From Nostocaceae cyanobacterium (lineage in GTDB: Bacteria; Cyanobacteriota; Cyanobacteriia; Cyanobacteriales; Nostocaceae), in the NCBI GenBank assembly GCA_035285345.1, contig JAYKJH010000239.1, positions 4,840 through 68,839 of the forward strand: a stretch of 64,000 nt of DNA, read 5' to 3'. Positions 621 through 48,954 of this stretch are shown here, in pieces (positions within the stretch are counted from its first letter, which is position 1; each line of letters begins with the position of its first letter). The notes under the pieces were generated by a model. The model was not told where the DNA came from and ran no database searches. It worked only from the letters and a program-made list of their open reading frames with translations. The translations under genes and the position numbers were made by a program.

Positions 621-728
621 GTGGTTAAAATCGTTAGCCGTAAATCTTTAGGCACACAGAATGTCTATGATATTGGTGTAGAAAGCGACCATAATTTTGT
701 CATCAAAAATGGGTTTGTAGCTGCCAAT
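621..728 (+). other. Split intein C-fragment (DnaE IntC, 36 codons ending in Asn, followed by CFN extein)
   Basis: The fragment is 36 aa with the conserved blocks QNVYDIGVE.DHNF and NGF.A.N, followed by CFNKSH. Length and motifs are the same as the known Npu/Ssp DnaE IntC. Confidence 0.85.
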
Positions 729-3321: not shown

Positions 3322-3634
3322 TTCATAATTGGTAATTTTTTTCAGGGGAATTGCCAATCAGGAATTATCAACTATCGAGTTGATAAATGTGGTTTTAAGT
3401 CTGATAAATTAGTAGCGAATACAATTCGTAAATACACAAATAAAGTCATCATGCCAGACTTTATAGCGCTTCCCACGCTCGTGAGGTATGGCAAGAAAGA
3501 ATTAACCGCCGATGGAAGAGGATGGACGCTTTCTTAAGCCGATAAATTTGTACCTCAGTAGACTAGGAAACGCTATATCTGTTGTGCTAATTCCTAGATA
3601 ATACACAATCTTGAATTGGAAATTTCATTTATTC

Positions 3635-4312
3635 ATGCATTCTCATATACCTTCATCTTGGCAAACAATTATTGCTGCTGAATTGAAAAAACCCTACTTT
3701 CATAAACTGCAAAATTTCCTAGTTCAAGAAAGACAAACCCAGACTATTTACCCAGCACCAGAGCATGTTTTTTCTGCCCTAGAACTAACAGCCTACGAGC
3801 AGGTAAATGTGCTTTTATTAGGACAAGACCCGTACCATGATGATAACCAAGCCCACGGTTTATGCTTTTCCGTTCAACCAGGAATTAAACCACCCCCTTC
3901 TCTGGTAAATATTTTTAAAGAATTGCAAGCTGATATGGGGTGCAAAACTCCCAATAATGGTTATTTAGTATCCTGGGCAAAACAAGGTATTCTTATGCTT
4001 AATGCTGTGTTAACTGTGCGGGCACATACACCTAATTCTCATAAAAATCAGGGCTGGGAAACCTTCACCGATGCGGTGATTAGTAAGGTAAATGAGAAAC
4101 CAGAACCAGTGGTGTTTGTGCTGTGGGGTGCCTATGCTCAGAAGAAGCTGAAATTAATTGATAACGCTCGACATACAGTCATTCAATCTGCCCATCCTTC
4201 GCCTTTATCAGCACGTAATGGCTTTTTTGGTAGTAAGCCCTTTTCACAGATTAATGCCGCTTTACGTCGTGCAGGGAAGCCGGAGATTGATTGGCAAATT
4301 AGGGATATTTAA
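3635..4312 (+). CDS. ung: Uracil-DNA glycosylase, family 1
   Basis: Motifs GQDPYH...QAHGLCFSV and HPSPLSA are present, and the N-terminus SWQTIIAAELKKPYF resembles Ung. The ATG at 3635 is preferred over the TTG at 3611 used by the ORF track. Confidence 0.9.
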   Translation: MHSHIPSSWQTIIAAELKKPYFHKLQNFLVQERQTQTIYPAPEHVFSALELTAYEQVNVLLLGQDPYHDDNQAHGLCFSVQPGIKPPPSLVNIFKELQADMGCKTPNNGYLVSWAKQGILMLNAVLTVRAHTPNSHKNQGWETFTDAVISKVNEKPEPVVFVLWGAYAQKKLKLIDNARHTVIQSAHPSPLSARNGFFGSKPFSQINAALRRAGKPEIDWQIRDI

Positions 4313-7498: not shown

Positions 7499-8176
7499 AT
7501 GAGTAGCGACAACCAACTCAGTCTGTTTGACGATGCTAGCTTTAACGAAAAAGAACTGATACCCAGCAACGCCAAAATTCCCATTCCTGCTGGTACTTAC
7601 GCCACAATGGACGAATTAGCAGTCCATTGCAATCAATGTCACCGCTGTGGTTTGGCAGCAAGTCGCACTCAAGCTGTCATCGGACGAGGGAACCTACAAG
7701 CACCAATTATGATTATTGGTGAAGCACCAGGACAAACAGAAGATCAAACTGGGCTGCCTTTTGTCGGTAAATCAGGACAGTTGTTGGAAAAAATTCTCGC
7801 TTCTGTAAATCTAGATACAGAAAAAGATGTATTTATCTGCAACATAAATAAATGCCGACCGCCAGATAACCGCACACCCATAACGGAAGAAATGGCAGCT
7901 TGTAAACCCTATTTATTAGAACAAATTCGCTTAGTAGACCCGAAAATTATTCTTTTAACTGGTGCCACAGCAGTCAAAGGCTTGCTTGGGGATACACGAG
8001 GGATTACAAAAATCCGTGGACAATGGTTTAGCTGGGAAGGACGGCTGTGTATACCAATTTTCCACCCCTCCTACTTATTGCGGAATCCTTCACGGGAACG
8101 AGGTAGCCCGAAATGGTTGATGTGGCAAGATATTCAAGCCGTGCGGGCTAAGTTAGATGAAATCCGGAGTTTTTGA
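7499..8176 (+). CDS. Uracil-DNA glycosylase, family 4 (Fe-S type)
   Basis: 225 aa with CxxCxRC cysteines, GEAPGQTEDQTGLPFVGKSGQLL, and a C-terminal FHPSYLLRNP. Confidence 0.85.
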   Translation: MSSDNQLSLFDDASFNEKELIPSNAKIPIPAGTYATMDELAVHCNQCHRCGLAASRTQAVIGRGNLQAPIMIIGEAPGQTEDQTGLPFVGKSGQLLEKILASVNLDTEKDVFICNINKCRPPDNRTPITEEMAACKPYLLEQIRLVDPKIILLTGATAVKGLLGDTRGITKIRGQWFSWEGRLCIPIFHPSYLLRNPSRERGSPKWLMWQDIQAVRAKLDEIRSF

Positions 8177-9996: not shown

Positions 9997-10962
9997 CTAA
10001 GTCCAAGCGCGGTAGAAACTACTTTCCTCCCAAATAGCAGCAGTGCGTTCTTCCACTGCTGCTATTTGCTGATCACAGAGGGGTTGGAAATTCCGCGCTA
10101 CGTTGACGTTAGATTCTAATTGTGTCGCTGTCTCTGCTGCAATCACACAAGTGTGAACTCCTGACTGCGATAGGGTGTATCCCAAGGCTTGTTCCATACC
10201 TTCCAGACCACCTGGTCGAAACAACTTTCCGTAAGCAGGTACTTTCATAGCTATCACACCGACATTTTTTTGTACAGCCACGGGTAAGACTGAGGGGATG
10301 AAAGGACGGGGGTGGTGTTTGTCAACAGCGTTGACTGGTATCAAGGTTGTGTGGAAAGGATAGCGCCGCAACCCTTCAGCAATTACCGCTGGTTCATGGT
10401 GTCCGGTAATGCCAGCAAAGCGCACGATTTTTTGCTCTATCGCTTCCTGGAAAGCTTTAATTGCTCCGGATGAACTAAATATAGTGTCTAGTTCCTCTGG
10501 GAAGGAAACGTGGTGTAATTGCCATAAATCTAGATAATTGGTTTTGAGGCGTTTTAAAGAACGTTCTAACTCAAACCAAGCACCATCCCTATCTCTCGCG
10601 GCTGTTTTACTTGCGAGGAAAAGCTTAGACCGATGGGGTGGGAGAACTTTACCTAAATATTCTTCACTCGGACCATAGCTAGCTGCAGTGTCAAAATAGC
10701 GGATACCAAGTTGCAATGCTCGTTCGATAATTGCCACAGCATCCCTTTGTTTACCTTCCCAAGATAGGGGAGTTTGTCCCGCACCTCCTAACCCAAAAAT
10801 GGGGACTTTGACTCCGGTGCGTCCCAGTACTCGTTCTGGGATGGTAGAGGGGGGTGTAGCGGTGTTGCTAGTATGTTGTTGCAAAGTTGTTCCTCCGATG
10901 ATACCACCAGCGACAGCAGCGCTAGTAATCAGGAAATTGCGCCGCGTTGTTTTGTCTGTCAT
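9997..10962 (-). CDS. Aldo/keto reductase with a twin-arginine signal peptide
   Basis: MTDKTTRRNFLITSAAVAGG is a Tat motif, and the AKR fold segment is GIRYFDTAASYG...LDLWQLHHV. The ATG at 10962 is preferred over 10980. Confidence 0.85.
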   Translation of the reverse strand: MTDKTTRRNFLITSAAVAGGIIGGTTLQQHTSNTATPPSTIPERVLGRTGVKVPIFGLGGAGQTPLSWEGKQRDAVAIIERALQLGIRYFDTAASYGPSEEYLGKVLPPHRSKLFLASKTAARDRDGAWFELERSLKRLKTNYLDLWQLHHVSFPEELDTIFSSSGAIKAFQEAIEQKIVRFAGITGHHEPAVIAEGLRRYPFHTTLIPVNAVDKHHPRPFIPSVLPVAVQKNVGVIAMKVPAYGKLFRPGGLEGMEQALGYTLSQSGVHTCVIAAETATQLESNVNVARNFQPLCDQQIAAVEERTAAIWEESSFYRAWT

Positions 10963-10976
10963 GATTTGCAGTATCC

Positions 10977-12047
10977 TCATTCCTTACTCAACAATTCTGG
11001 CAGTTCTTCCCCGGTGATAGCATTTTGGGAATATCCATCAGCTACATCTTTAATCACACCAGCCACAGGGACAGCAATCACTAGTCCCAATAAACCCCCG
11101 ACATAAGTTCCGAGTAACAAAGAAATTAACACCCAAATAGGTCGCAAGCCAGTAAATTTACCTAACAAACGCGGTGCGATCGCTTGGTCGATTAACTGGT
11201 CAATGACTACAGATGTAGCTAAAACTTTTGTTGCTAACCAAAAGTCATGGGTAGCAATTATTAAGGTAATTAATACCAGACTAACGACATCACCAAAGGG
11301 AATCAAACTCAACAGTCCCGCACTCAAACCAAACAGTAAACCAAACGGGACTTGGAAAAATAAAAATACTACAGTCAGCGATAGTCCCATCAATAAAGCC
11401 AGAGCTACCTGACCGATTAAGTAGTTTTGGAAGTTTTGTTGAATATCAGTTTCTAACTTACCAAAACTGGAGGGTAATTTCTTGAATAATCCCTGCCAAA
11501 TCCTTTTCCCATCTACCAATAGATAAAAAGTCAGTACTATTGTAATTAACGCTTCGGAAATGCTATCTAGAGTATCTATTATAAGTTGAAAAAATTTGTC
11601 GCCAAAATACTTTACTTCATCTGGTAATTTATCTGTCAATTGATTAGTTACATGGCTCAAATCAATTGGTATCCTTTGGTTGTCAAGCCAGATATTCAAA
11701 TTTTGGAGTTTTTGTTCACTAGATTCAATCCATTGAGGTAGTTGATGAATCATTTGATTAAACTGTTCTAGGACAATCGGAATTACAGTGATACCGAACC
11801 CTAGGACAATTATCAAAGTTGAAACAAAAACTATTCCGACAGCGTAACCGCGTTGAATTCCCCGCTTTGACAACACTGTTACTGGGTAGTTCAAAATAAA
11901 TGCTAGTAAACTTGACAAAACAAAAGTTGTAATCAGTGGCTGAAAATATTGGAAAACCTTAAATCCTAACCAAGCATTGAGAAATAGTAGGGGAAACAAC
12001 AAGGTTGTAATTAATAATTGCAGGAGTTTTGTCAGGGATATATTCAT
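10977..12047 (-). CDS. AI-2E family transporter (PerM-like permease)
   Basis: Multi-TM protein with a C-terminal LLGTYVGGLLGLVIAVPVAGVIKD typical of AI-2E/UPF0118. The start at MNISLTK is preferred. Confidence 0.8.
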   Translation of the reverse strand: MNISLTKLLQLLITTLLFPLLFLNAWLGFKVFQYFQPLITTFVLSSLLAFILNYPVTVLSKRGIQRGYAVGIVFVSTLIIVLGFGITVIPIVLEQFNQMIHQLPQWIESSEQKLQNLNIWLDNQRIPIDLSHVTNQLTDKLPDEVKYFGDKFFQLIIDTLDSISEALITIVLTFYLLVDGKRIWQGLFKKLPSSFGKLETDIQQNFQNYLIGQVALALLMGLSLTVVFLFFQVPFGLLFGLSAGLLSLIPFGDVVSLVLITLIIATHDFWLATKVLATSVVIDQLIDQAIAPRLLGKFTGLRPIWVLISLLLGTYVGGLLGLVIAVPVAGVIKDVADGYSQNAITGEELPELLSKE

Positions 12048-14786: not shown

Positions 14787-15806
14787 ATGGCTCCACTTGT
14801 ATCATTGATTATAAATTGTTTTAATCAAGGACGTTATCTTGAGCGGTCAGTGAAAAGTGTATTATCGCAGAAATTTACTGATATTGAATGTTTAATTGTA
14901 GATGATGGCTCTACTGATAATACTCGTGAGGTAGCAGAAAAATTGATGAGTCTTGATCCACGAGTTAAATATTACTTAAAAGAAAATGGGGGACTCCCGG
15001 CTGCCAGGAATTTTGGGATTAAACAGGCTCAAGGTGAATGGATTCAATGTCTAGATGCGGATGATTGGATTCATGAAGATAAAATTCAATTTCAGTTAAA
15101 TCATATTCCGGAATTTGGCAAGGAAAATATTGTTTTTTATTGCGACTACGAACGAGTAATTATCGATAAATCAGAAAAGATTGTTGATAGACAAGAGAAT
15201 ATTATTGGTTCTTTAACCAGCGACCAATTTATTCAACGGTTACTAATCCCTGATTTTCTGGCTGGTACACCCCATCCTGCATTACAGCAATGTATGTTGA
15301 TGCACAGAAGTATTTTTAGTACACATTGCTGGGATGAAAGATTGAAAGCCTTGGGTGATAGGTACTTTGCAGTCGATATTTTAAGGAATGGTGTAAAGTT
15401 TATTTATACCCCTATGGTAGGGGCTTTTTATACAAAACATCAGTCTAATAGAACGAATAATTGGTCTTACATGAAGAACTATTATCTGTTATTCTACGAG
15501 ACTGTTTACCAGCATCATCAAGAATTAGCTAAATTATGTCCTCCGGGGACAAATTATTTGTTGGAAGAAAGTATCCGCGAAAAAGAGGAAGATAATTTTA
15601 ATCGCTTAGTAAAAATCGCCCAACCTCCTTTTGAGATTTGCGACAAAAAAATCCATTTACATCAAGTATTTCTAGTGAAGTTATTTTACGTAATCAGGCT
15701 AATGCTACCGAATTTTATTCTTTATGAGAAGTACCGAGGTCCCCGCTCGAAAAAACTCATATCTCTGTTCTCCCAACTGCTGCACTTGAAAGCTAGTCAC
15801 TCATAG
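14787..15806 (+). CDS. Glycosyltransferase family 2
   Basis: VSLIINCFNQGRYLERSVKSVLSQ...IVDDGSTDNT...LDADDW (GT-A fold with DxD). Confidence 0.85.
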   Translation: MAPLVSLIINCFNQGRYLERSVKSVLSQKFTDIECLIVDDGSTDNTREVAEKLMSLDPRVKYYLKENGGLPAARNFGIKQAQGEWIQCLDADDWIHEDKIQFQLNHIPEFGKENIVFYCDYERVIIDKSEKIVDRQENIIGSLTSDQFIQRLLIPDFLAGTPHPALQQCMLMHRSIFSTHCWDERLKALGDRYFAVDILRNGVKFIYTPMVGAFYTKHQSNRTNNWSYMKNYYLLFYETVYQHHQELAKLCPPGTNYLLEESIREKEEDNFNRLVKIAQPPFEICDKKIHLHQVFLVKLFYVIRLMLPNFILYEKYRGPRSKKLISLFSQLLHLKASHS

Positions 15807-15898: not shown

Positions 15899-16666
15899 AT
15901 GAATAACTACTTATTTATTGACAGAAAATATTTACTACCCAGGATTTGGTCAAATAGGGAATTAGAGAAAATATCTCACCTATTTTCTGGCGATATTGTG
16001 AATGTGAGTGGATGGCAAGATTTGGATAAGGAAGGGAAACATTACAAGGATTATTTTGTCAATGCCAACAGCTACACAATTACCAATTATAAATCAGAAG
16101 CCAGAGGTATTCAAGGGTACGAAAATGAAATTTTTATTGATTTAGAAAAAGAATTGCCATCAGAATTAGTGAATCGTTTTGATGTCGCCTTTAATCATAC
16201 AGTTTTGGAACATATTTATGATATTAATACAGCTTTCAAAAATTTATGCTTAATCAGTAAAGATATTGTCGTAATAGTTGTACCTTTTTTACAGCAAATG
16301 CATTCTCATTATGGCGATTATTGGAGATTTACACCATTAACAATCAAGAGAATGTTCGAGGATAATGGTATGTCGCTTTTGTATTTATCTTTCAATGGTC
16401 ACAAAAATGCATCGGTATATATATTTGCTGTTGCAAGCAAGAATCCTTCTCAATGGCAAGATAAACTTTCTCAAGAATTTTCCTATGTAGAACCTGAGCC
16501 ACCGGGAGATGGGTTTGAATCTTATATAGGTTGTCATGCTATTCAAAATCATTTTTATGCAATAGCTAAGCATTATAATAAAATAACGAGTAGTATTTCC
16601 CAAGCAGCAAGACACTATTATGGCAGAATGAAAGTAAGACTAAAAAGCTTAGTGATTAAAGAATAA
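15899..16666 (+). CDS. Class I SAM-dependent methyltransferase-like protein
   Basis: FDVAFNHTVLEHIYDINTAFKNLCLISKDIVVIVVPF resembles the Methyltransf_11 post-I/II region. The N-terminal glycine motif is not obvious. Confidence 0.55.
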   Translation: MNNYLFIDRKYLLPRIWSNRELEKISHLFSGDIVNVSGWQDLDKEGKHYKDYFVNANSYTITNYKSEARGIQGYENEIFIDLEKELPSELVNRFDVAFNHTVLEHIYDINTAFKNLCLISKDIVVIVVPFLQQMHSHYGDYWRFTPLTIKRMFEDNGMSLLYLSFNGHKNASVYIFAVASKNPSQWQDKLSQEFSYVEPEPPGDGFESYIGCHAIQNHFYAIAKHYNKITSSISQAARHYYGRMKVRLKSLVIKE

Positions 16667-16729: not shown

Positions 16730-17908
16730 GTGAATTTAATGACAAATCTCACAAATTTGAAAGTTTCCTTAGTTGTTAGTGACCTGTCTGGCGGTGGTAG
16801 TGTCAGAGCTTTTTTATTAGCACAAGTTCTCAAAAAGCTTAATTATAAAGTAGAAATTGTCGGCTTTTTGTTCGGGAAAGAATTGTATGCTATTCCTCCT
16901 GATGGTATTGAGGTAATTGCTGTTAATGGTAAGATTTATCCAGAATTTTTCAGTAATGCTCAAGAACTTTTAAAAAAAATAAATGGAGACATTATTTACG
17001 CGGTTAAACCTAAGCCTAGTAGTTTTGGACTGTCTCTTTTAAAGAAATTCAGCAGTAGGCGTCCTTTATTATTAGATATGGATGACTGGGAATTGAGTTG
17101 GTATGGTGGATTTGAATGGAAATATCATCCTAGTCCTAAGCAATTTTATCGTGATATTTTCAAGCCTAATGGTGCGTTAAGAAATCCTGACAATCCGCTT
17201 TATATTAAGTGGATGGAAAGCTTTGTAGGGTTAGCGAATGCAATCACGATAGATACTCAATTTCTGCAAGACCGTTTTGGTGGTGTTTATTTACCTAATG
17301 GTAAGGATACTACCATGTTTGACCCCACTAAGTACGATTCCCAAACCAGCAGAAGGCGTTATGGCTTGGCTGACTATCGTATTTTAATGTTTCCGGGAGC
17401 GCCACGACCGCATAAGGGGGTAGAAGATGTTTTGATGGCGTTAGATATTTTAAATCAGCCAGATTTGAGACTGGTAATTGTCGGTGGAAGTCCTTATGAT
17501 GACTATGACGATCAACTAATAGCAAAATGGGGACGTTGGATTATTAAGTTACCTAAATGTCCAGTGGAACTAATGCCTGAAGTTGTTAGCGCTGCTCACG
17601 TTGTGGTAGTTCCCCAAAGAGATAATATAATAGCTCGTGCCCAATTTCCGCTCAAGTTAACCGATGGGATGGCGATGGCTAAGCCTGTATTGTCAACTAA
17701 AGTAGGAGATATTACGGAAATTTTAGGTGAAACGGGTTATTTAGTTGACCCAGGATGTCCGCAGCAAATAGCCGAGGAAATTCAGGGTATATTTGATGAT
17801 TTAGATGCAGCAAATGAGCGGGGGAGTAAAGCAAGAGAAAAATGTGTAGAAAAATATAGTTTAGAGGCGATGGCGTCTATTTTAGAGCAGGTAATTGAGG
17901 GGTTATAA
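16730..17908 (+). CDS. Glycosyltransferase family 4 (GT-B fold)
   Basis: 392 aa. The C-terminal half has the PHKGVEDVL...VIVGG...VVPQ...FPLKLTDGMAMAKPVLST pattern of GT4/GT1 enzymes. Confidence 0.8.
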   Translation: MNLMTNLTNLKVSLVVSDLSGGGSVRAFLLAQVLKKLNYKVEIVGFLFGKELYAIPPDGIEVIAVNGKIYPEFFSNAQELLKKINGDIIYAVKPKPSSFGLSLLKKFSSRRPLLLDMDDWELSWYGGFEWKYHPSPKQFYRDIFKPNGALRNPDNPLYIKWMESFVGLANAITIDTQFLQDRFGGVYLPNGKDTTMFDPTKYDSQTSRRRYGLADYRILMFPGAPRPHKGVEDVLMALDILNQPDLRLVIVGGSPYDDYDDQLIAKWGRWIIKLPKCPVELMPEVVSAAHVVVVPQRDNIIARAQFPLKLTDGMAMAKPVLSTKVGDITEILGETGYLVDPGCPQQIAEEIQGIFDDLDAANERGSKAREKCVEKYSLEAMASILEQVIEGL

Positions 17909-18045: not shown

Positions 18046-20307
18046 ATGTCTACCCAAAAGTTACTCTTAAAATTTGCTAAACCGTATCCAGGGTTGATTT
18101 TCCTGACAATTTTGTTAGGATTTTCGGGGGCTTTATTTAATGGCGTAGGAACGGCTTTGATTGTCCCGGTAATTCTCCGAATTGTGGGACAAGAAGTGGA
18201 TTTTAAAGGCGCTCCTCCCATTATTCAAGCAATTATGTCTCCCTTTGAGAATATCCCAGAAAATAACCGTTTAATGGTGATGACTGGGGCAATAATTTGC
18301 ACAATTTTTTTTAAAAATTGTGCAAATTATGCGAGTACTTTAGCATCTAGTTCGCTATCGCGCATGTTGACATCAGATATGCGGGAAGCAGGATTAAAGT
18401 TACTCCTAGAAATTGACATAGCTTATTACACCAAGATGAAAGTTGGTGATTTAATAAATCGCCTTGGTGGAGAAATTTCTCGTGCGGCAAGTGCTATAGG
18501 TAATGCAATTAAGTTAATTATAGTAGTAATTACAATTCTAGTTTTAGTTGGATTGTTGCTGTCAATTTCATGGCAGTTAACGGTTGCTTCGACGATTTTA
18601 TTGTTTTTAGTGACGTTAATTAATCAGTATGCTATTTCCCGCTCGAAAGATTTTGGCAAACAGCTATCAGAAATGTCAAAAGCTTATTCAATTACGGTGC
18701 TGGAGACACTCAGCGGGATTCGTCTGGTAAAGTCAACAGGTAATGAAGAAAGAGAATATCAACGAATTCAAAAATTAATTCGCGAACGGGAAAAAGCAGA
18801 GTTTAAATCTCAAGTTCATTCGGAAGCGATTGCACCAGTTAGCGAGGTGACAGGGATTGTTGCATTAATATCAATTGTCTTTTTAGGCAGGACTTTTTTT
18901 GCAGACCAAATAGCTTCTCTATCAGCGGTTTTGCTGACATATTTATTAGTTCTATTTCGGTTATTACCTTTTATTTCTCAATTAAATACTTTGCGGAGTA
19001 GTTTTGCGAATACTTCCACTAGTGTTGATTTAGTAACGGATTTTTTACGTCGCGATAATAAGCCGTTTATGAGCAACGGTAAGCAGCCATATATAAAATT
19101 ACAAGAGGGAATACATTTTCAGAATATTTCTTTTGCTTACCCTGGTCAGGAACATATGGTATTGAAAAAGGTAGATTTACATTTACCACGTGGTACAACT
19201 TTAGCTTTGGTTGGTGGTTCTGGTGCTGGTAAATCTACTTTGGCTGACCTTTTACCGAGATTTTATGACCCGATTTCTGGTTGTATTAGTCTCGATAATC
19301 AAGATTTGCGTTCTTTTGACTTGAAGTCCCTGCGTAGCGCTATGGGAATTGTGAGTCAAGATACGTTTCTATTTAATGATACTGTAGAAAATAATATAGG
19401 CTATGGACGACCGGGAGCGACATTTGCAGAAGTTGAAGCAGCAGCAAAACGGGCTAATGCTTATGAGTTTATTATTAAATTACCCCAAGGATTTGAAACC
19501 ATCATAGGCGATCGCGGTGTAATGTTGTCGGGTGGACAGCGACAAAGATTAGCGATCGCACGTGCTTTGCTCCAAGACCCAGAAATTTTGATTCTCGATG
19601 AAGCGACGAGTGCTTTAGATACAGTTTCGGAAAGATTAGTCCAAACTGCTCTGGATGATTTGAGTCGCGATCGCACTACCCTGGTAATTGCTCACCGACT
19701 TTCTACAGTGCAAAAAGCTGACCAAATTGCTGTGTTAGATCAGGGACATGTGGTTGAGGTAGGAACCCATGAGGAACTATTGCACAAGGGAGGCTATTAT
19801 TCTCGCCTTTATCAAATGCAATTTACTGAGCGTCATGAAGATTTTACCACAAGCCATCAAACCTTTCTCCGCACTGCTCACGAAGTCCGGACGCGGCTAA
19901 ATTCGATGATTGGTTTGCTACAGATGTTACTGGATGATATGGTAGAAAGTCCGGAAGAAAGACACGAGTTAATTACAGAATCTTACAATTGTGCTGGGAA
20001 AATTCTCAACTCAATTGAGTTTTTTGAAGATAGCGTTAAATTACACTTACGCTTGCAACCAACGTCTTTTTCTGAACCGGAAATTGGCTTAAATAACTCC
20101 CAAGAAGACTTTATTCGTATCTCCCATGAAATTCGTACTCGTCTTAATCCAATGTTAGGTTTTTTGGGGTTACTTGTAGATAATATGGTGGAAAATGTTG
20201 CCGAAGAACACGAGTTATTAGGAGAGGCTTATCATTCTGTTATTCATTTAATTGATACTATTGAATTTTTTGAAGACAGTGTAGATGTCAGGTTGTTATC
20301 GCATTAG
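18046..20307 (+). CDS. ABC exporter (fused permease/ATPase, MsbA/PglK-like) with an atypical C-terminal extension of about 150 aa
   Basis: Six-TM N-terminal domain, Walker A GGSGAGKST, signature LSGGQRQR, and Walker B ILILDEATSALD. The canonical end is near YYSRLYQMQF (about residue 595), followed by two H-box-like repeats. Confidence 0.9.
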   Translation: MSTQKLLLKFAKPYPGLIFLTILLGFSGALFNGVGTALIVPVILRIVGQEVDFKGAPPIIQAIMSPFENIPENNRLMVMTGAIICTIFFKNCANYASTLASSSLSRMLTSDMREAGLKLLLEIDIAYYTKMKVGDLINRLGGEISRAASAIGNAIKLIIVVITILVLVGLLLSISWQLTVASTILLFLVTLINQYAISRSKDFGKQLSEMSKAYSITVLETLSGIRLVKSTGNEEREYQRIQKLIREREKAEFKSQVHSEAIAPVSEVTGIVALISIVFLGRTFFADQIASLSAVLLTYLLVLFRLLPFISQLNTLRSSFANTSTSVDLVTDFLRRDNKPFMSNGKQPYIKLQEGIHFQNISFAYPGQEHMVLKKVDLHLPRGTTLALVGGSGAGKSTLADLLPRFYDPISGCISLDNQDLRSFDLKSLRSAMGIVSQDTFLFNDTVENNIGYGRPGATFAEVEAAAKRANAYEFIIKLPQGFETIIGDRGVMLSGGQRQRLAIARALLQDPEILILDEATSALDTVSERLVQTALDDLSRDRTTLVIAHRLSTVQKADQIAVLDQGHVVEVGTHEELLHKGGYYSRLYQMQFTERHEDFTTSHQTFLRTAHEVRTRLNSMIGLLQMLLDDMVESPEERHELITESYNCAGKILNSIEFFEDSVKLHLRLQPTSFSEPEIGLNNSQEDFIRISHEIRTRLNPMLGFLGLLVDNMVENVAEEHELLGEAYHSVIHLIDTIEFFEDSVDVRLLSH
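19849..20304 (+). other. Two tandem HisKA/DHp-like modules (70 aa each) fused to the ABC exporter C-terminus
   Basis: R1 (19849..20058) is FLRTAHEVRTRLNSMIGLLQMLLDDMVESPEERHELITESY...IEFFEDSV. R2 (20095..20304) is FIRISHEIRTRLNPMLGFLGLLVDNMVENVAEEHELLGEAY...IEFFEDSV. Both resemble the histidine-kinase H-box (SHELRTPLN) with His codons at 19879 and 20125. No HATPase_c domain follows. Confidence 0.6.
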
Positions 20308-20376
20308 AGAAATTTTTAGGCTATTTACGTAGATTATAAGAATGATTTAACCGCAGATGAACTCTGATAAACGCCG

Positions 20377-21348
20377 ATGAATAGAAAAATTGTGGGAATG
20401 ATTAGTAGCTATTCTGGGCTGGAAAATAGACCAGATTGGTTGTGGCATCAAACGCCTTATCATTTTGGTAATTGGGGTAATATACAAATACTGGCACAAG
20501 CTCCTAAGCCAGATTTTTTATTAATGTACAATTATACAAGCTTTCCAGAAATTTCCGATAAAAAGGGATTTTTTTGGCAAAAAAATCGAAAAAAAAATGA
20601 ATATGAATTAGCGCAACAAGAGCTAGTCTCTAAGCTCCGAGGTGTTCCTAAAGAGCGGATAATTTATTTATTGCGGGAACCACCTTTAGATGAGGTCGTA
20701 GAGGCGAATAAGAGGTTTTATCGGCAAGCTCAGAATTATTGTAGCTATATTTCTGGTCCTGATGATTTTGCACCGACACCTGATTATATGCCTGCGATTT
20801 GGTATCATTCTAATTCATTTAGAGATTTAAATGATTTGCCGCATCCAGAGAAAGTAGCACCATGTAGTTGGATTACTTCTGGTATTACTCGCACAGCAAA
20901 TCATCGTCAGCGGATGACTTTTTTGCAAGAGTTACAAGCGAGTAATATTAAGTTTGATTTGTACGGTCGTGATTTACCAAATTGGGCACGAACTCCCGGA
21001 CAAATTGGGAGTAAATGGTCTGGTATGGCTCCTTATTATTATAACTTGGCGATTGAAAATTATGCTGATAATGATTGGTATGTGAGTGAGAAATTATGGG
21101 ATGCTTTACTTGCTTGGTGTTTACCAATTTATTATGGTGGTTCGGCGGCTGATAAGTTATTACCGAGCGGGAGTTTTTTAAGATTACCTAGTTTGGATGA
21201 AAAGGGAATTGCTTATATTCAGGATGTGACGGCTACTCCTGATGCTTGGTATGCAGCAAAGGATGCTATTGCTGAAGCGAGAAAGGTGATTTTACATAAG
21301 TTAAATTTGTTGGATTGGTTGTCAAATTATGTGAAACAATTTGATTAA
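20377..21348 (+). CDS. Glycosyltransferase family 10-like (alpha-1,3-fucosyltransferase-like)
   Basis: YNLAIENYADNDWYVSEKLWDALLAWCLPIYYGG closely parallels the GT10 motif FxLxFENSxxxxYVTEKxxDA....IPIYWG of Helicobacter FutA. Confidence 0.7.
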   Translation: MNRKIVGMISSYSGLENRPDWLWHQTPYHFGNWGNIQILAQAPKPDFLLMYNYTSFPEISDKKGFFWQKNRKKNEYELAQQELVSKLRGVPKERIIYLLREPPLDEVVEANKRFYRQAQNYCSYISGPDDFAPTPDYMPAIWYHSNSFRDLNDLPHPEKVAPCSWITSGITRTANHRQRMTFLQELQASNIKFDLYGRDLPNWARTPGQIGSKWSGMAPYYYNLAIENYADNDWYVSEKLWDALLAWCLPIYYGGSAADKLLPSGSFLRLPSLDEKGIAYIQDVTATPDAWYAAKDAIAEARKVILHKLNLLDWLSNYVKQFD

Positions 21349-21435: not shown

Positions 21436-22440
21436 ATGAGTGAGGGAATATATATTCTTGCTAATGATGTGGTTTATGAGCAGTTGGTGGCTTTGTTAAA
21501 TAGTATTGAGGTTAATGCAGGTAAAAATTATCCGGTTTGTGTGATTCCTTATGATGATAGGTTGGATAGGGTTAAGGGGGAAGTTGAAAGGAGAAATAAT
21601 GTCGAGATATTGGGGGATAAGGAGATAATTTCTCTTTGGGAAGGGTTTGCTTCTGAGATTTGGAAAACTCATCCTGATGCTTTTAAGGTGTGGGAAAAAG
21701 ACGGTATTTCTGGTGTTTATCGGTTGGGAATGCATCGTCGGTTTTGTGCTTTTGATGGTATTTTTGATAAATTTATTTATTTAGATGCTGATATTCTGGT
21801 TTTGAATTCTTTGGAGTATATTTTTGGGCAGTTAAATCACAGTGATTTTGTGGTTTATGATTTTCAACATAAAGATGTTACCCATGTATATGATATAAAT
21901 TCTCAGAAGTTAAGAGATGTGTTTCTCCAGTCTCGCTTAGATTATGAAATCTTTTGTGCGGGGATGTATGGAGGGAGGAGGGGAATTTTTAATGGGGAAA
22001 TGCGAGAGTATCTCTTATCTCAACTGCGACAGGGAGATGGGGAAATTTTATATATGAATGCTCCTGACCAAACTATCCTTAATTATATGGTGATGAAGTC
22101 GGGGATTTCTAGCTATAATTTCGCTCATCATTTAGGGAAGGACGAAGTTACTGGTTGTTGTGTTACTTCACCGCATTTTCAGGAAAAAAATCATGTTTTG
22201 TATGACAATGCTAATCGTTTAACTTATCTGCACTATATTGGTTTGTCTTCTGCTTTGTTTAGTAAAGTCTGTGCTGGAGAAAATATTATCTTTCCCTATC
22301 GTGATATTTTCTTGCACTATCGTTATTTCCATGAACCAGAGAAGCGACCGAAATTTACAACTAAGCCAAAAGTTTATAATGCACCGCCGAGTTTAGCAAC
22401 ACGAGTATTAAGAAAGTTAGGGATAAAGGTAGAGGTTTAA
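21436..22440 (+). CDS. GT8-like nucleotide-sugar transferase (paralog A)
   Basis: YLDADILVLNSL (DxD), FCAGMYGG, APDQTILNYM. The N-terminus GIYILANDVVYEQLVALLNSI...VIPYDD is shared with the next gene. Confidence 0.65.
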   Translation: MSEGIYILANDVVYEQLVALLNSIEVNAGKNYPVCVIPYDDRLDRVKGEVERRNNVEILGDKEIISLWEGFASEIWKTHPDAFKVWEKDGISGVYRLGMHRRFCAFDGIFDKFIYLDADILVLNSLEYIFGQLNHSDFVVYDFQHKDVTHVYDINSQKLRDVFLQSRLDYEIFCAGMYGGRRGIFNGEMREYLLSQLRQGDGEILYMNAPDQTILNYMVMKSGISSYNFAHHLGKDEVTGCCVTSPHFQEKNHVLYDNANRLTYLHYIGLSSALFSKVCAGENIIFPYRDIFLHYRYFHEPEKRPKFTTKPKVYNAPPSLATRVLRKLGIKVEV

Positions 22441-22443
22441 GAA

Positions 22444-23370
22444 ATGAATAGGGGAATTTATATTATTGCTAATGACAAGGTAATTGACCAGGCGATCGCA
22501 CTCCTTAATAGTATCCGAATTTATGATTCAGATACGCCAGTGGTGATGATTCCTTATGATGATAATTACCAGAAAATTTATGAATTATTGCATAATAATT
22601 TTGGCGTTAAGTTGTACCCAGATTTAGAATTTATCGAGCGTCTTTCTCAAAGATTGCATGAGACTTTTGGCGGGAAGTTCTTCGCACGTCCTAATCAATT
22701 TCGTAAACAAGCTTGTTGGTTTGGGGAATTTGACGAGTTTTTGTATATTGATACTGATATTGTGGTATTTGAGAAAATAATCGATAACCTGAATTATTTG
22801 CAGGAATATGATTTTATTAATTGTGATTATCAACATTTAGGGGGAATTACTAATGTGTTCTCCCAGAGGGTGTTAGAGGAGAAAGTATTTAGCGAAACAG
22901 AAGTCAAAGATATTTTTAATGGTGGTTGGTGGGCTTCTAAGAAAAATCTAATTTCCGAAGATGATTTGTATGAAGTGTTTAGAGAATGTGCAGCGCATCC
23001 GGAATACTTTGATTTTTCGCAAAAGACTTCTGACCAACCGATTATTAATTATATGTTATTAAAGCGCATCCCGCGCCGGTTTAATATTGTGAAAAGAGAG
23101 GGGAAAGCACCGGGAAGTTGGGCTGGTACTCCCCATTTTCAGCGTCAAGGTAATATTTTAATTGACCCGACGGTTAATCAGCCTTTACAATATCTCCACT
23201 GGGCTGGTATTCGCATTCAACCGGGTTGTGCTTATTGGGATATTTGGGAGTATTATCGCCATCTTAATCCTTCTTTGCCACCGATGGATATTCCGGTGTT
23301 TAAACACAAGAATGCTTGGGAGAAAATGTTGGATAATGTGAAAAATCAAGTGCGGAACTTGAAGGCTTAA
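22444..23370 (+). CDS. GT8-like nucleotide-sugar transferase (paralog B)
   Basis: The N-terminus GIYIIANDKVIDQAIALLNSI...MIPYDD, YIDTDIVVF, FNGGWWAS and SDQPIINYM mark it as a tandem paralog of 21436..22440. The gap between them is 3 nt. Confidence 0.65.
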   Translation: MNRGIYIIANDKVIDQAIALLNSIRIYDSDTPVVMIPYDDNYQKIYELLHNNFGVKLYPDLEFIERLSQRLHETFGGKFFARPNQFRKQACWFGEFDEFLYIDTDIVVFEKIIDNLNYLQEYDFINCDYQHLGGITNVFSQRVLEEKVFSETEVKDIFNGGWWASKKNLISEDDLYEVFRECAAHPEYFDFSQKTSDQPIINYMLLKRIPRRFNIVKREGKAPGSWAGTPHFQRQGNILIDPTVNQPLQYLHWAGIRIQPGCAYWDIWEYYRHLNPSLPPMDIPVFKHKNAWEKMLDNVKNQVRNLKA

Positions 23371-23564: not shown

Positions 23565-24332
23565 ATGAGTCAAAAAGATTTTTGCTTTTGCACTCTAGCT
23601 CTGGGTAGCAAATACCGTTTTTTTGTTAAACAATTAGCCCAAGATTTAGAAGTTTATTCTCCGGGGACAATGCTGGTGGTGTATACGGATGTTCCGGAAG
23701 ATTTAAAGAGTCAGGGGAATATTTTGGCGGTGAAGCATCAGCAAGAGGGGATTTTGCTTTGTTATCATGACAAACGGTTGCCGATAGCTAGGGCTTTGTC
23801 TGAGTTTCGGGTGGCGATTTTTCTGGATGCTGATATGAGAATTATCGCTCCTGTACCTGATAATATTAATTGGATTCCGGGGATTACTGCAGGGCATCAA
23901 GAGAATTTGTTGGAGCATATCGAGAAATATACTCCAGAGAAGTTAGTTTGTACTCGGAAGTTGGCGCCGAAGTTAAAGCTAGATTTGGCGAGTACTAAAT
24001 ATATTGGCGAATGTATATTTATTGTGACTAGAGACGGGGGAACAGAGAAAGAGTTTATTCAAGAGTGGGGGAAGATTGGGCGTTATTTTGAGCTAAATAA
24101 GCATCATTCTGGTGAAGGTACTGTGATGGGTTTAGCTGCTGCAAAGGTGGGTTGGGATGTGCATCGAGAAGGTTGGGAAGCTATTAGAAATGTGACTCAT
24201 CATTTGGGTGGTGCTTCTGTTCAGAATATCTCAACTTCTTGGGATAATTTTAAGATGAGGATGGGTTATCATTGGCGCTTGAATAAGGGAAGATTGCTGG
24301 CGTTGCAAGATTTTGATTTTTATTATCGATAA
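23565..24332 (+). CDS. Putative DxD nucleotide-sugar transferase (uncharacterised family, paralog 1)
   Basis: FCFCTLALGSKYRFF...YHDKRLPIARAL...IFLDADMRII. It is clearly homologous to the minus-strand gene 24673..25539. Confidence 0.5.
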   Translation: MSQKDFCFCTLALGSKYRFFVKQLAQDLEVYSPGTMLVVYTDVPEDLKSQGNILAVKHQQEGILLCYHDKRLPIARALSEFRVAIFLDADMRIIAPVPDNINWIPGITAGHQENLLEHIEKYTPEKLVCTRKLAPKLKLDLASTKYIGECIFIVTRDGGTEKEFIQEWGKIGRYFELNKHHSGEGTVMGLAAAKVGWDVHREGWEAIRNVTHHLGGASVQNISTSWDNFKMRMGYHWRLNKGRLLALQDFDFYYR

Positions 24333-24672: not shown

Positions 24673-25539
24673 TCACCGACGAAATACCGCGACTACCCTT
24701 AACCGCAATAAATAATAGAAAAACCTAACCTCCTTACCTAACTTACCCACCACCTTTTCCCAAAAAGAAAGCTGAGGATATTCCAGCATTCCCTGCTGCT
24801 GAAAATATATCGCCATATCCTCCATCTTCGACTGACCATTTTTGATTCTAATTAACTCCGTTTTGTCCTTAAAAAAATCTATCCCCTTCATCTCACACCA
24901 TCTTACTGACAAACCAACCTTTACCGCTGCTAAAGCAATAGCATTCCCTTCCGCATCATAAACCCCATTTAATTCAAAATAAGGAGCAATCATATCCCAC
25001 TGCTTGAGAAACTCTAATTCTTTCCCACCATCTTTAGTCACCGAAAACAAATACTCGTAAACAAAAGGAATACTTTCATGTTCCACTGCTAAACCCAACA
25101 TTTGAGCTGCCTTTTGACTCACTTGAAATTCCCGACAAACTCTAGCGCTAGCACTACCCTCCAGAACTTTCGCATACTTTTTCGACATCACTTCACAACC
25201 CCTAGCTGAAATACCTGGTTGTTGAATCCATTGCATATCTTGCGGTACTGACCCCAAAATTCGCATATCCGCATCCAAGAATATACAAGCATTAAACAAC
25301 TCTAAAGCCTTAGCGAACGCAAATCTTTTATCGTGATAACCCTTCACACTTTGCTGACGATGTTTAAAGCTAATAACATTCGACTGTTCGCTAAATTCTT
25401 GCGGTTCATCAGATAAAACTAGAAAAGAAGTGTAAGGCGCATATTTCTCAATATCTTTTGCTAATAACAATGCCAAAGCGCGATATTTCTTTCCAAACGC
25501 TAAAGTGCAGAAACAAAATCCTGGTCTCTCTGAAATCAT
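24673..25539 (-). CDS. Putative DxD nucleotide-sugar transferase (paralog 2)
   Basis: FCFCTLAFGKKYRAL...YHDKRFAFAKAL...IFLDADMRIL. The start MISERPG is preferred, because the 18-codon upstream extension in the ORF track lies in a dispersed repeat. Confidence 0.55.
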   Translation of the reverse strand: MISERPGFCFCTLAFGKKYRALALLLAKDIEKYAPYTSFLVLSDEPQEFSEQSNVISFKHRQQSVKGYHDKRFAFAKALELFNACIFLDADMRILGSVPQDMQWIQQPGISARGCEVMSKKYAKVLEGSASARVCREFQVSQKAAQMLGLAVEHESIPFVYEYLFSVTKDGGKELEFLKQWDMIAPYFELNGVYDAEGNAIALAAVKVGLSVRWCEMKGIDFFKDKTELIRIKNGQSKMEDMAIYFQQQGMLEYPQLSFWEKVVGKLGKEVRFFYYLLRLRVVAVFRR

Positions 25540-25621
25540 ATTTGTGCCTTTGCGCCTTTGCGCGAAAAAAAAATAACTGCTCGTCACCAACAACGAGCAG
25601 TTATTTTAAATCCTCAAATTA

Positions 25622-26836: not shown

Positions 26837-26920
26837 CGTGATGCCATTTGGTAGTACGATAAGAGTGTAAATCATCTGGATTGTTATGGCTAGATTGTGC
26901 CCATTGTCGGAGCGGAACTA

Positions 26921-28219
26921 ATGCCAGTTGCCTACCAGTACCGCCTACTGCCAACTTCTGAGCAACGTGCTGAAATGTCGCGGTGGCTTGATATGTTGCG
27001 ATTGCAATATAACTGGATGTTGGCAGAGCGGTTTCAATGGTGGGAAGAAAATCGCTCGTCTGTGAATGCTTGCCCATTGGTTTGTCATCTGCCAGAACTG
27101 AAAGATCAGCCCGACTACTACAGCCAGAAACGCTCCCTAGTGCCACTGAAGCAAGATAGACCCTGGTACAAAGACATTCACTCTCAGGTGCTTCAGGATA
27201 TGGTGAAGCGGGTCAAACTAGCATTTGACCGCTATCTTGGCGGCGATGGTAACGGCAACCGGAGTGGAAAGCCTCGCTTCAAAAGGAAGAACCGCTACCG
27301 CTCGTTCACCTATCCTCAAGCTTCAATCGACTGGATTGATGGCAACAAAATTGAGCTACCCAAGCTTGGGACATTCAAGGTGATTTGGCATCGTCCACTG
27401 CCTGAAGGCTTTAACGTCAAAACCGCCATCATTACTCACAAAGCGGACGGTTGGTATATCACGCTAACCCTAGAAGATGTTTCAGTTCCCGAATTCACAT
27501 CAGATATTGAGCCGACAGCAGGCAATTCCATCGGGATTGATCTCGGAGTTGAAAAGTTCCTGGCTGACTCAGAAGGGGAATTCGAGCGAATTCCTCAGCA
27601 CTTCAGAAAGTCAGAACAAAAGCTTGCACGATTGCAGCAAAAAGTATCGACTGCCAAGAAAGGGAGTCGCGCTTCGTCGCTGCTAGTTCGCAAGGTTGGC
27701 AAATTGCATCAAAAGATTGCACGACAACGCAAACAGTTTCACTACGAAACAGCGCAAAAGGTTCTCAAGAAAGCCGATGTGGTGTTTGTTGAGGATCTGA
27801 GGGTGAAGAATATGTCCAGACGTGCCAAGCCCAAGCAAGATGAAACAGGTAAGTTTCTCCCCAATGGTCATGCGGCTAAGTCTGGGCTGAACAAGAGTAT
27901 TGCCGATGCAGGCTGGAGTCAGTTCATTGACATCCTTGCTTTCAAAGCTGAAAAAGCTGGTTCGCGAGTAGTCAAAGTAAACCCCAAAGGAACCTCGCAG
28001 CATTGCTCAAACTGCCTGAATCGTGTCCCTAAAGAGTTGTCTGACCGATGGCATTCTTGCCCACATTGCGGTACAGAACTCGACCGGGATACAAATGCGG
28101 CAATTTTAATCAAAAAAGTAGGGTTGGACATCGCCTTACTCAAAAACGCTCAACCAGCTATGCGCGGAGCGCAGGCTTTGCCAACGGCTCGGAAGAGAAG
28201 CCCGCGCTGTACCGCCTAA
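26921..28219 (+). CDS. tnpB: RNA-guided endonuclease TnpB (OrfB_IS605/OrfB_Zn_ribbon)
   Basis: MPVAYQYRLLPTSEQ... The RuvC triad is intact (GIDLGVEKF, VFVEDL, RDTNAAILI) and the zinc ribbon is CSNC...CPHCG. The ATG at 26921 is preferred over the ORF-track start at 26897. Confidence 0.9.
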   Translation: MPVAYQYRLLPTSEQRAEMSRWLDMLRLQYNWMLAERFQWWEENRSSVNACPLVCHLPELKDQPDYYSQKRSLVPLKQDRPWYKDIHSQVLQDMVKRVKLAFDRYLGGDGNGNRSGKPRFKRKNRYRSFTYPQASIDWIDGNKIELPKLGTFKVIWHRPLPEGFNVKTAIITHKADGWYITLTLEDVSVPEFTSDIEPTAGNSIGIDLGVEKFLADSEGEFERIPQHFRKSEQKLARLQQKVSTAKKGSRASSLLVRKVGKLHQKIARQRKQFHYETAQKVLKKADVVFVEDLRVKNMSRRAKPKQDETGKFLPNGHAAKSGLNKSIADAGWSQFIDILAFKAEKAGSRVVKVNPKGTSQHCSNCLNRVPKELSDRWHSCPHCGTELDRDTNAAILIKKVGLDIALLKNAQPAMRGAQALPTARKRSPRCTA

Positions 28220-36766: not shown

Positions 36767-36908
36767 AAACCTAGGAAGGGAATGAGAGTTAAAAATCTAA
36801 AATAGATATTAAATTGAAAGGAAAACAACACCCATCGGTAACTCTGTCAATTAATTTTAGTTTTTTTTCAGCGTTCCCGGGTTGTCACCAGTGCAGAAAC
36901 AGAATTAC

Positions 36909-38096
36909 ATGCAGGTTTCTCAAGACCAGCCTAACTACTCTCCAGCACCTCTTCAACTGTTACTGTTTGTCGATGAGCGTCCCAGTTCTCAGCAACAGCT
37001 ACAGAGGATTCGTCAGTTCTTACAAGAGTTACAAGTCCAACAGCAGTTTGACTTGGAAATCATTGATGTCGGGGAACAACCTTACCTAGCCGAACACTTT
37101 AAACTGGTAGCAACACCGGCTTTAATCAAAATTCATCCCCCACCCAGACAGATACTTGCTGGTAGCAATATTATCGGTCAGCTAAAAAACTGGTGGCCTC
37201 GGTGGCAAATAGCTGTAGAAGAGTATTTAAATTTACAAGAAGATGCTAAAGAGAATTCAGACAATAACAATAATGGTACATCGTCTAAAGTATCATTACG
37301 TTCTTCAGCTGTTTCTGGGGAACTGCTACAGATGTCTGACGAAATTTTCCGGCTAAAACAGGAAAATGAAAAACTTCAAGAGCAATTGAAATTTAAAGAC
37401 CGGGTAATTGGAATGCTAGCCCATGACTTGCGAAATCCTCTTACCTATGTTTCTATGGCTATCGAAACTCTAGAATCGAACAACAATCCCCAAAAAAGCC
37501 AATTTTCCCAACTCAAACCACAGCAAACAGCACAGCTTTTCCAGCAAACTCGCGCTCAAGTACGGAAAATTGACCGGATGATTACTGATTTGTTACAAGT
37601 AGCACGCGGTACAGATATAGAAATTCGCATCCAACCTCAAAAGCTGGATATCGGGAAACTCTGTTTGGATATGCTGGAAGAATTGGGCGATCGCTACAGC
37701 GCTAAATCCCAGAAAATAAATACAGATATTCCCAAAGACTTGCCTTGTGTTTACGCTGACCCAGAAAGAATCCGCCAGGTGTTAATCAATTTGTTGGACA
37801 ATGCAATTAAATACACGCCAGAACAAGGCATAATTACCGTTGCAGGTCTGCATCGTACTACACAAAAAGTCCAACTTAGTATTGGCGATACAGGTCCTGG
37901 TATTCCCTCAGAGAAGCGCGAGCAAATATTTGAAAATCACTATCGTCTAGAACGGGATGAAGCCAAAGAAGGTTATGGCATTGGTCTATCTCTATGTCAA
38001 CGGATTATCCGCGCTCATTACGGTCAAATTTGGGTAGATTCTACTGCTAATGGTGGTGCATGGTTTCACTTTACACTACCCGTTTATCCTTTTTAG
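36909..38096 (+). CDS. sasA: Adaptive-response sensory kinase SasA (KaiB-like N-domain plus histidine kinase)
   Basis: The N-terminal thioredoxin/KaiB-like segment is [13 protein letters not shown]...[28 protein letters not shown]. The H-box is [11 protein letters not shown], and N/G boxes are LLDNAIKYT and GDTGPGIP. Confidence 0.85.
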
Positions 38097-48058: not shown

Positions 48059-48067
48059 AGATACAGA

Positions 48068-48927: not shown

Positions 48928-48954
48928 GCCGTTGCCTTGTTATCTACTTTGTCT

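Follow-up and report, generated by a model that had tools for sequence, protein, structure and literature searches.

Half-transporters of the HepA, MsbA and PglK types combine a transmembrane domain (TMD) with a nucleotide-binding domain (NBD) and occur in a context of glycan biosynthesis; HepA, for example, exports the heterocyst envelope polysaccharide of Anabaena. The same core and context are shared by the 753-residue ATP-binding cassette (ABC) protein described here, which is encoded on the forward strand at 18046..20307 of a 64,000-nucleotide stretch of DNA (the window) from a Nostocaceae cyanobacterium (assembly GCA_035285345.1, contig JAYKJH010000239.1, positions 4,840 to 68,839). Compared with the HepA and MsbA models, this protein has an addition: a C-terminal tail of 160 residues derived from the DHp (dimerization and histidine phosphotransfer) domain of histidine kinases. 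Other ABC transporters also carry an extra domain after the NBD, devoted to regulation, cargo or coupling. For instance, MalK, MetN and ModC have regulatory domains, Wzt has a carbohydrate-binding domain, and TmrAB and TM287/288 have zipper helices. BceAB-BceS is a parallel with respect to the link between a transporter and signaling, although BceS is a separate and complete kinase and not a fused DHp devoid of its catalytic and ATP-binding (CA) domain. To our knowledge, none of the accessory parts of all these transporters is derived from a DHp domain.

The 160 residues located C-terminal to the NBD, which terminates at YYSRLYQMQF593, are two tandem HisKA (DHp) hairpins. The repeats, of 70 residues each, span positions 19849-20058 and 20095-20304 and align without gaps (33 of 67 residues identical, 49%; E = 8e-25), the identity of their cores (58-59 residues) being 53%. 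An initial annotation of this DNA, made from the letters alone, had reported a tail of about 150 residues with repeats more than 50 percent identical; the long post-NBD tail stands at a corrected length, and the identity figure holds for the core only. The two H-boxes are FLRTAHEVRTRLNSMIGLL and FIRISHEIRTRLNPMLGFL, with their His residues encoded by cac at 19879-19881 (His612) and cat at 20125-20127 (His694). Arg occupies the place of the canonical H-box Pro in each repeat (R617 and R699), and both close with the motif IEFFEDSV, all of which had been read correctly in that annotation.

The score of the tail against HisKA (Pfam PF00512) is 44.7 bits (E = 1.4e-11), well above the gathering cutoff of 26.9. 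Taken alone, repeat 1 also exceeds this cutoff (28.4 bits), and repeat 2 falls under it (22.2 bits). PilB3_C was discarded as an identity for the tail (18.6 bits, E = 0.002, under its 27-bit cutoff). Searches of the 753-aa protein against Pfam gave no HATPase_c match at E up to 10, nor was any Hpt (PF01627) match listed at that limit. HATPase_c, receiver and Hpt domains were also absent from the open reading frames (ORFs) of at least 150 residues scanned between 5.3 and 33 kb of the window, in agreement with the earlier statement that none of them is adjacent. The tail is a kinase-less, DHp-derived tandem module, and the central claim of the initial annotation, an exporter ending in two HisKA/DHp modules without CA, was borne out both by the significant HisKA match and by the prediction of helical hairpins. 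Since the CA domain (HATPase_c) is missing, the protein is not a sensor histidine kinase (EC 2.7.13.3), and the name "histidine kinase" that some of its UniRef relatives carry is a mis-annotation.

Among solved structures, the nearest in sequence to the tail, matched by its profile, are the DHp domains of GacS and RetS (7n0e, 7z8n and 6dk7). With these domains, and with those of GAF kinases, the tail shares the H-box pattern S-H-E-x-R-T-x-L-N, the length of the hairpin, the loop motif D-x-M-x-D/E-x-P-E-E and the alpha-2 motif Y-x-S-A. However, it differs from the DHp of histidine kinases in the absence of CA, the presence of tandem hairpins in one chain, the change of the Pro at H+5 to Arg or Gln, the frequent loss of the His, and its attachment to an ABC NBD instead of a sensor or HAMP input. 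When 1.84 billion representatives were searched exhaustively with the tail, 170 proteins were retrieved at E ≤0.001, mostly ordinary kinases beyond approximately the top 20, while a word-index search with the tail only gave six proteins, chiefly fragments. The closest relatives outside the ABC family are cyanobacterial GAF-HisKA-HATPase_c kinases (P0132, P0134 and P0137; 39-49% identity), with which the tail has in common SHELRTPLNGMIGFLKLI-DGMADDPEEQ-EF--EAY-SA-HLL. Motifs shared at this level of identity indicate that the tail is a real DHp from the cyanobacterial GAF-kinase lineage and not a convergent coiled coil. Tandem kinase-less DHp modules recur outside the ABC family as well, as judged from the architectures of P0141 and P0142 (223-227 aa), which contain two tandem H-box hairpins without His (KTSKVLRTHLN... 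and ASEALRTHLN...), and of P0138 (300 aa), in which a decayed HATPase_c comes after two hairpins.

Searching with the full-length protein gave at least 120 clusters of 744-773 aa with 68-89% identity, which form the comparison set referred to below as the 120 relatives. A PF00512 match is precomputed for most of these clusters, and HisKA is matched by 29 of 31 diverse tails of the family. The sources of the named clusters include Nostoc, Scytonema, Tolypothrix, Fischerella, Chlorogloeopsis and Cylindrospermum, and one database record (P0007, from a Nostocaceae metagenome-assembled genome) is identical to the window protein. A scan of one genome per species yielded 311 stretches confirmed by tblastn as relatives of the tail. 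All counts of related loci given here refer to the best 80 of these 311 stretches, nearly all of them from Nostocales according to their record titles. A continuous ORF of 740-789 aa is present in 78 of the 80 related genomes, complete chromosomes included, and is interrupted by contig ends in the other two. This rules out a frameshift or an assembly artefact joining two genes, an objection that had been anticipated from the start. The ABC-DHp fusion is real and conserved across heterocyst-forming cyanobacteria (Nostocales). Thus, an architecture initially presented as unfamiliar is common in this order, and its HisKA match is annotated automatically in databases. Among the fragments retrieved, P0002 is a 159-aa piece whose second repeat is truncated.

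The AlphaFold2 (AF2) model of the tail, based on 31 family sequences, shows four helices of 32-35 residues (mean pLDDT 80.8, cores of at least 90; pTM 0.72), and both hairpins of the chain pack together as an intramolecular four-helix bundle. Each repeat is predicted to be an antiparallel two-helix hairpin. In repeat 1, helix alpha-1 (residues 602-629, 19849..19932) contains the H-box F607-L625 matched by HisKA, and helix alpha-2 (residues 636-670, 19951..20055) ends in IEFFEDSV. The second H-box lies in helix alpha-1' of repeat 2 (residues 682-711, 20089..20178), followed by helix alpha-2' (residues 718-752, 20197..20301) with the same ending. All these segments, as well as the two linkers, are on the forward strand. 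The NBD-to-tail linker (approximately residues 594-601, 19825..19848) is poorly conserved and predicted with low confidence, and the inter-repeat linker (residues 671-681, 20056..20088) is variable in sequence and constrained in length. The model of the full-length protein is poor (mean pLDDT 63, pTM 0.39) and was relied on for the tail helices and the linker only. It repeats the same four helices, with block-mean pLDDT values of about 80-89, and drops below 50 at residues 594-603 (NBD-to-tail) and 672-683 (inter-repeat). In Foldseek comparisons with the PDB, the best matches by TM-score are single-chain four-helix bundles, such as 6egc, a single-chain version of a designed hairpin dimer (TMq 0.65, rmsd 3.3). 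The distance from one H-box to the other is 81-83 residues in 114 of 121 sequences. The maintenance of this spacing in spite of a linker conservation of 36% is as expected for a fixed pairing in cis. Therefore, the two repeats probably form one cis four-helix bundle, held by a short and flexible tether.

Homodimers are formed both by the DHp domains of histidine kinases and by type IV exporters. This coincidence, and the compatibility of monomer AF2 runs with an inter-protomer arrangement, would agree with a clamp in which canonical DHp homodimers form one or two stacked bundles beneath the NBD dimer and gate NBD association, as zipper helices at the C-terminus or regulatory domains do in other ABC transporters. 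However, the tandem duplication of fixed spacing and the intramolecular packing (pTM 0.72) already fill the hydrophobic core in cis. A second, coaxial bundle would be topologically awkward, because alpha-2 of repeat 1 would return to the end proximal to the NBD. In addition, a variable linker predicted with low confidence is a poor force transmitter, which argues against rigid mechanical coupling. We consider such a clamp improbable. The initial annotation had envisaged obligate homodimeric bundles and, among its functional ideas, an NBD clamp; the only model available shows instead a single-chain bundle, and the clamp is weakened by a linker with 46% identity and pLDDT values below 50.

Both repeats are under purifying selection, which in repeat 1 is nearly as strong as in the transporter core. 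Mean pairwise identity among the 120 relatives is 0.79 for the TMD, 0.85 for the NBD, 0.73 for repeat 1 and 0.53 for repeat 2, the values for the NBD-to-tail linker (residues 594-606) and the inter-repeat linker being 0.46 and 0.36, respectively. The polar residues of alpha-1 in repeat 1 are almost invariant: R609 is present in 117 of the relatives, E613 in 117, R615 in 119, T616 in 111 (plus 8 with Ser) and N619 in 119. R609, E613, R615 and N619 each stay at no less than 117/120, also where His612 has been lost. Positions S620 and G623 are conserved as well. The Pro at H+5 is replaced by Arg or Gln in 119/120.

The fate of the His residues is different in each repeat, and selection on the repeats is asymmetric. 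His612 is present in 107 of the 120 relatives and otherwise replaced by Tyr (8), Gly (4) or Pro (1). The equivalent position of repeat 2 is His in only 5/120, with V, E, D, N, A or S in the others. Neither position is His in ten relatives, nor in P0128, a divergent orthologue (Tyr/Tyr), and a search with this divergent branch gave three matches. On a neighbor-joining tree of the ABC core rooted with P0128, losses of the repeat-1 His are scattered over at least eight independent places, so that several lineages can dispense with the His. On the same tree, an early branching position is seen for P0112, P0011 and P0007/P0008, the lineages that have His in repeat 2. Twin His residues, which the initial annotation had noted in this protein, are restricted to the window protein and its 89% relative among the family members compared. 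They are a lineage peculiarity, an early-branching exception, and not a family trait. In a survey of HisKA domains, the phospho-acceptor His was absent from 0.9% of them (PMC12632262). By comparison, it is absent from 11% of repeat 1 sequences, about 12 times this background, and from 96% of repeat 2 sequences.

Recent internal gene conversion was considered as the source of the twin His and ruled out. The two repeats of the window are 62% identical at the DNA level but only 42% identical at third codon positions. Such a low third-position identity, together with the early branching of the His lineages, points to retained ancestry. In early lineages, repeat 2 is closer to the family repeat 1 (0.49-0.58) than to other repeat 2 sequences (0.41-0.48).

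Phosphotransferases without kinase activity of their own provide another term of comparison. Spo0B, ChpT and Hpt domains are four-helix bundles with an exposed His that constitutes a docking and transfer site for receivers. In Spo0B and ChpT, which also have a degenerate CA-like domain, the bundle is a homodimer to which each subunit contributes one hairpin, and Hpt domains belong to an unrelated sequence family. The likeness of the tail to these proteins is limited to the predicted four-helix topology, its bundle would have come from a tandem DHp duplication, and the PF01627 profile that defines such phosphotransferases by sequence does not recognize it. If the tail were nevertheless a phosphorelay node, His612 would be phosphorylated in trans, either through the CA of another kinase or through back-transfer from a phosphorylated receiver, and its phosphorylation state would switch export or serve to pass phosphoryl groups on. 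It is known that an isolated DHp can be phosphorylated in trans by an isolated CA, as occurs with domains A and B of EnvZ. The retention of His612 (89%), of Glu at H+1 (97%) and of Thr or Ser at H+4 (99%) agrees with such a role, as does the presence of at least one H-box His in 110 of the 120 relatives, since P0011, P0023 and P0112, devoid of the repeat-1 His, keep that of repeat 2. The predicted single-chain bundle is also Hpt-like in topology. However, the ten relatives and P0128 without any His otherwise maintain the module, no cognate kinase or receiver gene was found nearby in the ORFs scanned or in the 80 loci, no Hpt match is listed at E up to 10, and His-less forms of repeat 1 greatly exceed the HisKA background mentioned above (PMC12632262). 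A phosphorelay function is, in our opinion, doubtful. Because His612 has been lost repeatedly and His694 is rare, obligatory phosphorylation is unlikely as a conserved function, and the phosphorylation switch suggested initially loses ground for this reason. The only histidine kinase in the scanned parts of the window is a SasA-like protein (36882..38096, forward strand) with KaiB, HisKA and HATPase_c domains. It was set aside as a partner of the tail, given its location 16.5 kb downstream and the role of SasA in circadian clock output.

A described protein in which the DHp surface has outlived its His is DivL. In DivL, a Tyr replaces the H-box His and the DHp surface still serves to bind partners, the CA domain being retained in a free-standing signaling protein. 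Tyr is also the most common replacement of the His in the tail family (8/13 in repeat 1, and both repeats of P0128). In contrast to DivL, the tail is a 160-residue transporter appendage that lacks CA. The concept of pseudo-histidine kinases has been discussed in the literature (PMC12632262). The explanation that we favor, with a probability of roughly 0.4, is that the tail is a docking pseudo-kinase, that is, a kinase-dead, single-chain, pseudo-dimeric DHp whose surface for docking is provided by repeat 1, with repeat 2 as a structural partner.

According to this explanation, an ancestral DHp hairpin from the cyanobacterial GAF-type histidine kinase lineage would have been fused to the C-terminus of a HepA/MsbA-like exporter, as suggested by sequence similarity, and the fused hairpin would later have been duplicated in tandem. 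The duplication would have internalized the DHp dimer interface, each NBD then carrying a self-contained bundle suspended by a short, probably flexible linker and with a predicted topology like that of Hpt or Spo0B-type bundles. Repeat 1 would present an almost intact histidine kinase-type surface (R609-H612-E613-R615-T616-N619), whereas repeat 2, whose H-box His is mostly gone, would act as the partner hairpin. The spacing of R609, H612/E613, T616, N619/S620 and G623, three to four residues apart, would place them on one face of helix alpha-1. Autophosphorylation of the tail is impossible because there is no CA domain, and a surface kept without a kinase domain most plausibly binds the usual partners of DHp domains, namely a receiver domain or a kinase. 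The module would thus most likely be a docking or regulatory surface by which a cytoplasmic partner is linked to the exporter, the foremost candidate being a receiver-domain protein or kinase of a two-component pathway. His612 may contribute to binding or to phosphatase-like chemistry and yet not be indispensable; the conserved His is stated to be dispensable for phosphatase activity in HisKA proteins (PMC12632262). Docking of a partner of the response-regulator type, another of the ideas in the initial annotation, appears to fit best the conservation pattern.

Several points weigh against this proposal. No receiver, kinase or Hpt gene that could point to a partner is syntenic with the exporter gene in the ORFs scanned and the 80 loci. 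The retention of His612 in 89% of the relatives, together with Glu at H+1 and Thr at H+4, would also fit phosphotransfer in most lineages. The conservation of the H-box could be purely structural, R and N being fairly conserved in repeat 2 too. The AF2 alignments are shallow (31 and 41 sequences) and the models are of the monomer only; a swapped or canonical homodimer would be compatible with monomer AF2, which cannot show an inter-protomer DHp dimer. Finally, the transported substrate is deduced from neighboring genes only.

A related, though unlikely, possibility concerns the exporter itself. In ordinary histidine kinases the sensor is located N-terminal to DHp helix alpha-1, a place that is occupied here by an ABC glycan exporter. 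The exporter might be the input domain of a stripped-down two-component transmitter, whose single-chain DHp would report the transport or ATPase state to a soluble receiver protein. Reporting could proceed by state-dependent docking, by phosphatase action on a phosphorylated regulator, or by Hpt-like transfer via His612. If true, the export of envelope glycans would be joined to two-component signaling by a fused "flux-sensing" connection in multicellular cyanobacteria, and tandem DHp duplication would be an independent evolutionary path to a monomeric phosphotransfer bundle.

With regard to the transporter core, the gene is a single uninterrupted ORF in the ORF list, with its stop codon at 20305-20307, and profile searches identify its product as an MsbA/HepA-like ABC half-transporter. 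The core of the TMD (ABC_membrane, residues 65-305, 18238..18960, forward strand; Pfam E = 8.5e-26) has the type IV exporter fold. It is followed on the same strand by the NBD (approximately residues 355-593, 19108..19824), in which Pfam ABC_tran covers residues 373-522 (E = 8.4e-33). The Walker A (GGSGAGKST), signature (LSGGQRQR), Walker B (ILILDEATSALD) and H-loop (AHRLST) motifs are readable in the translation, so that the organization of a type IV ABC exporter, an ABC_membrane TMD and then an ABC_tran NBD with all four motifs, is complete. The nearest solved half-transporters are MsbA (E = 4e-95) and Sav1866. The top NCBIfam match is HepA_fam_ABC (NF045513) with 568.5 bits, followed by MsbA_lipidA with 460 bits. 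Since the former score is below the 725-bit equivalog cutoff, the gene encodes a HepA-like paralogue and not HepA itself. Both models reach their last position near residues 593-595, leaving the 160-residue tail beyond their coverage.

The exporter gene belongs to a conserved gene order comprising rplI and gloB, a GT4 glycosyltransferase gene, the ABC gene, usually a gene for a 412-aa GT4-like protein, a GT10-like gene, two genes of the Npun_R2821/R2822 family and an ABC1 kinase gene. In the window, all the members of the cluster located here are on the forward strand. The upstream GT4 gene (16730..17908; Pfam Glycos_transf_1 / Glyco_trans_1_4) is present in 78/80 related loci, and the downstream GT10-like (fucosyltransferase-like) gene (20377..21348; Pfam Glyco_transf_10, E = 7e-12) in 80/80. 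The two paralogous, GT8-like Npun_R2821/Npun_R2822-family genes (21436..23370; NCBIfam NF045582, 420 and 339 bits, cutoff 250) are kept in 78 and 77 of the 80 loci. The window lacks the gene for the 412-aa GT4-like protein, and only a 70-bp gap (20307..20377) separates the ABC and GT10-like genes. It has as upstream extras a GT2 gene (14787..15806) and a 255-aa ORF without family match (15899..16666). In Scytonema NIES-4073 (L017), the 412-aa GT4-like gene (10470..11708) has its start within the final codons of the ABC gene, which ends at 10492, suggesting translational coupling. In ten other loci, the ABC gene is separated from the GT10-like gene by about 1.2-2.5 kb, which suggests the same arrangement there. 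P0128, a 694-aa protein from a metagenome, retains the GT4-ABC pair as well as the tandem tail. Judging from this context, the cargo would probably be a lipid-linked oligosaccharide or glycolipid built by the GT4, GT10-like and Npun_R2821/2-family enzymes.

Among the recurrent neighbors of the ABC gene in the 80 related loci, none encodes a CA, REC or Hpt domain. This absence of any syntenic signaling gene, in contrast to four co-conserved glycosyltransferase genes, leads to a further explanation in which the tail has no two-component link. It would be a structural or allosteric appendage that stabilizes the NBDs, tunes the ATPase cycle or recruits the glycosyltransferases of the cluster, H-box conservation reflecting packing or the binding of a non-signaling partner. 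The overlap between a glycosyltransferase gene and the ABC stop codon, seen in L017 and suggested in ten further loci, agrees with this idea, and so does the repeated loss of the His, which is missing from both repeats in ten relatives and P0128. The substitution of the helix-kinking Pro by Arg or Gln in all but one of the 120 relatives would fit a rigid helix freed from kinase-type bending. However, the polar stripe typical of histidine kinases (R609, E613, R615, T616 and N619) is conserved at 92-99% and the His at 89%, versus 36-46% for the linkers, which would be unexpected if a signaling-type surface were irrelevant. Moreover, in the same protein the His position of repeat 2 drifts freely among V, E, D, N, A and S, as corresponds to relaxed selection. 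A purely structural role is, on balance, somewhat unlikely, and the docking pseudo-kinase described above is preferred.

No description of the ABC-DHp architecture, or of the Npun_R2821-2826 genes, was found in the full-text literature and supplements searched, and a paper on an Arthrospira genome that names both domains does so only in a table of domain counts. The fusion is apparently unstudied, although ABC exporters and two-component DHp domains have each been the subject of intensive study. Compared with the initial proposal it is less unusual, since the twin His are lineage-specific and a kinase-type phosphorylation role is not universally conserved. Even so, a conserved fusion of an ABC exporter with a DHp that lacks the kinase domain is a natural example of a DHp dimer made single-chain, and the family, with members that have both His, one or none, is a graded series in which the role of the DHp surface without phosphorylation can be probed. 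The fusion also marks a conserved and uncharacterized glycan cluster (GT4, ABC, GT10-like, Npun_R2821/2) of heterocyst-forming cyanobacteria. If a partner regulator exists, the tail would connect signaling, physically and directly, with the export of envelope glycans.

Some other features of the cluster and of the window deserve mention. P0004, from Limnospira fusiformis CCALA 023, has the N-terminus of an Npun_R2821/2-family protein fused to the end of an NBD and a single repeat devoid of His (SSYDVRTRLN); in this cyanobacterium, which is non-heterocystous, it resembles what a deletion would leave of the same cluster. Downstream of the Npun_R2821/2-family genes of the window, two ORFs without Pfam or NCBIfam match (23565..24332, forward strand, and 24673..25593, reverse strand) are mutually paralogous (about 37-39% identity via shared hits) and are again found next to the cluster in about 25 of the 80 related loci. 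Between the glycan cluster and the ABC1 kinase gene there is an IS605-family OrfB/TnpB gene (26897..28219, forward strand) with HTH_OrfB_IS605, OrfB_IS605 and Cas12f1-like TNB domains. A second small sugar-modification cluster on the reverse strand (47207..50632) contains GT2, HAD-family hydrolase, O-methyltransferase-like and shikimate-dehydrogenase-like genes. Two genes of the uracil-DNA-glycosylase superfamily (3611..4312 and 7499..8176, both on the forward strand) are located less than 4 kb apart. Finally, the product of the ORF at 573..1976 (forward strand), which begins ...VKIVSRKSLGTQNVYDIGVESDHNFVIKNGFVAAN and continues with CFNKSH, contains HHH_6 and OB-fold domains and is presumably the C-terminal half of a split DnaE with the C fragment of a split intein, a known cyanobacterial feature.

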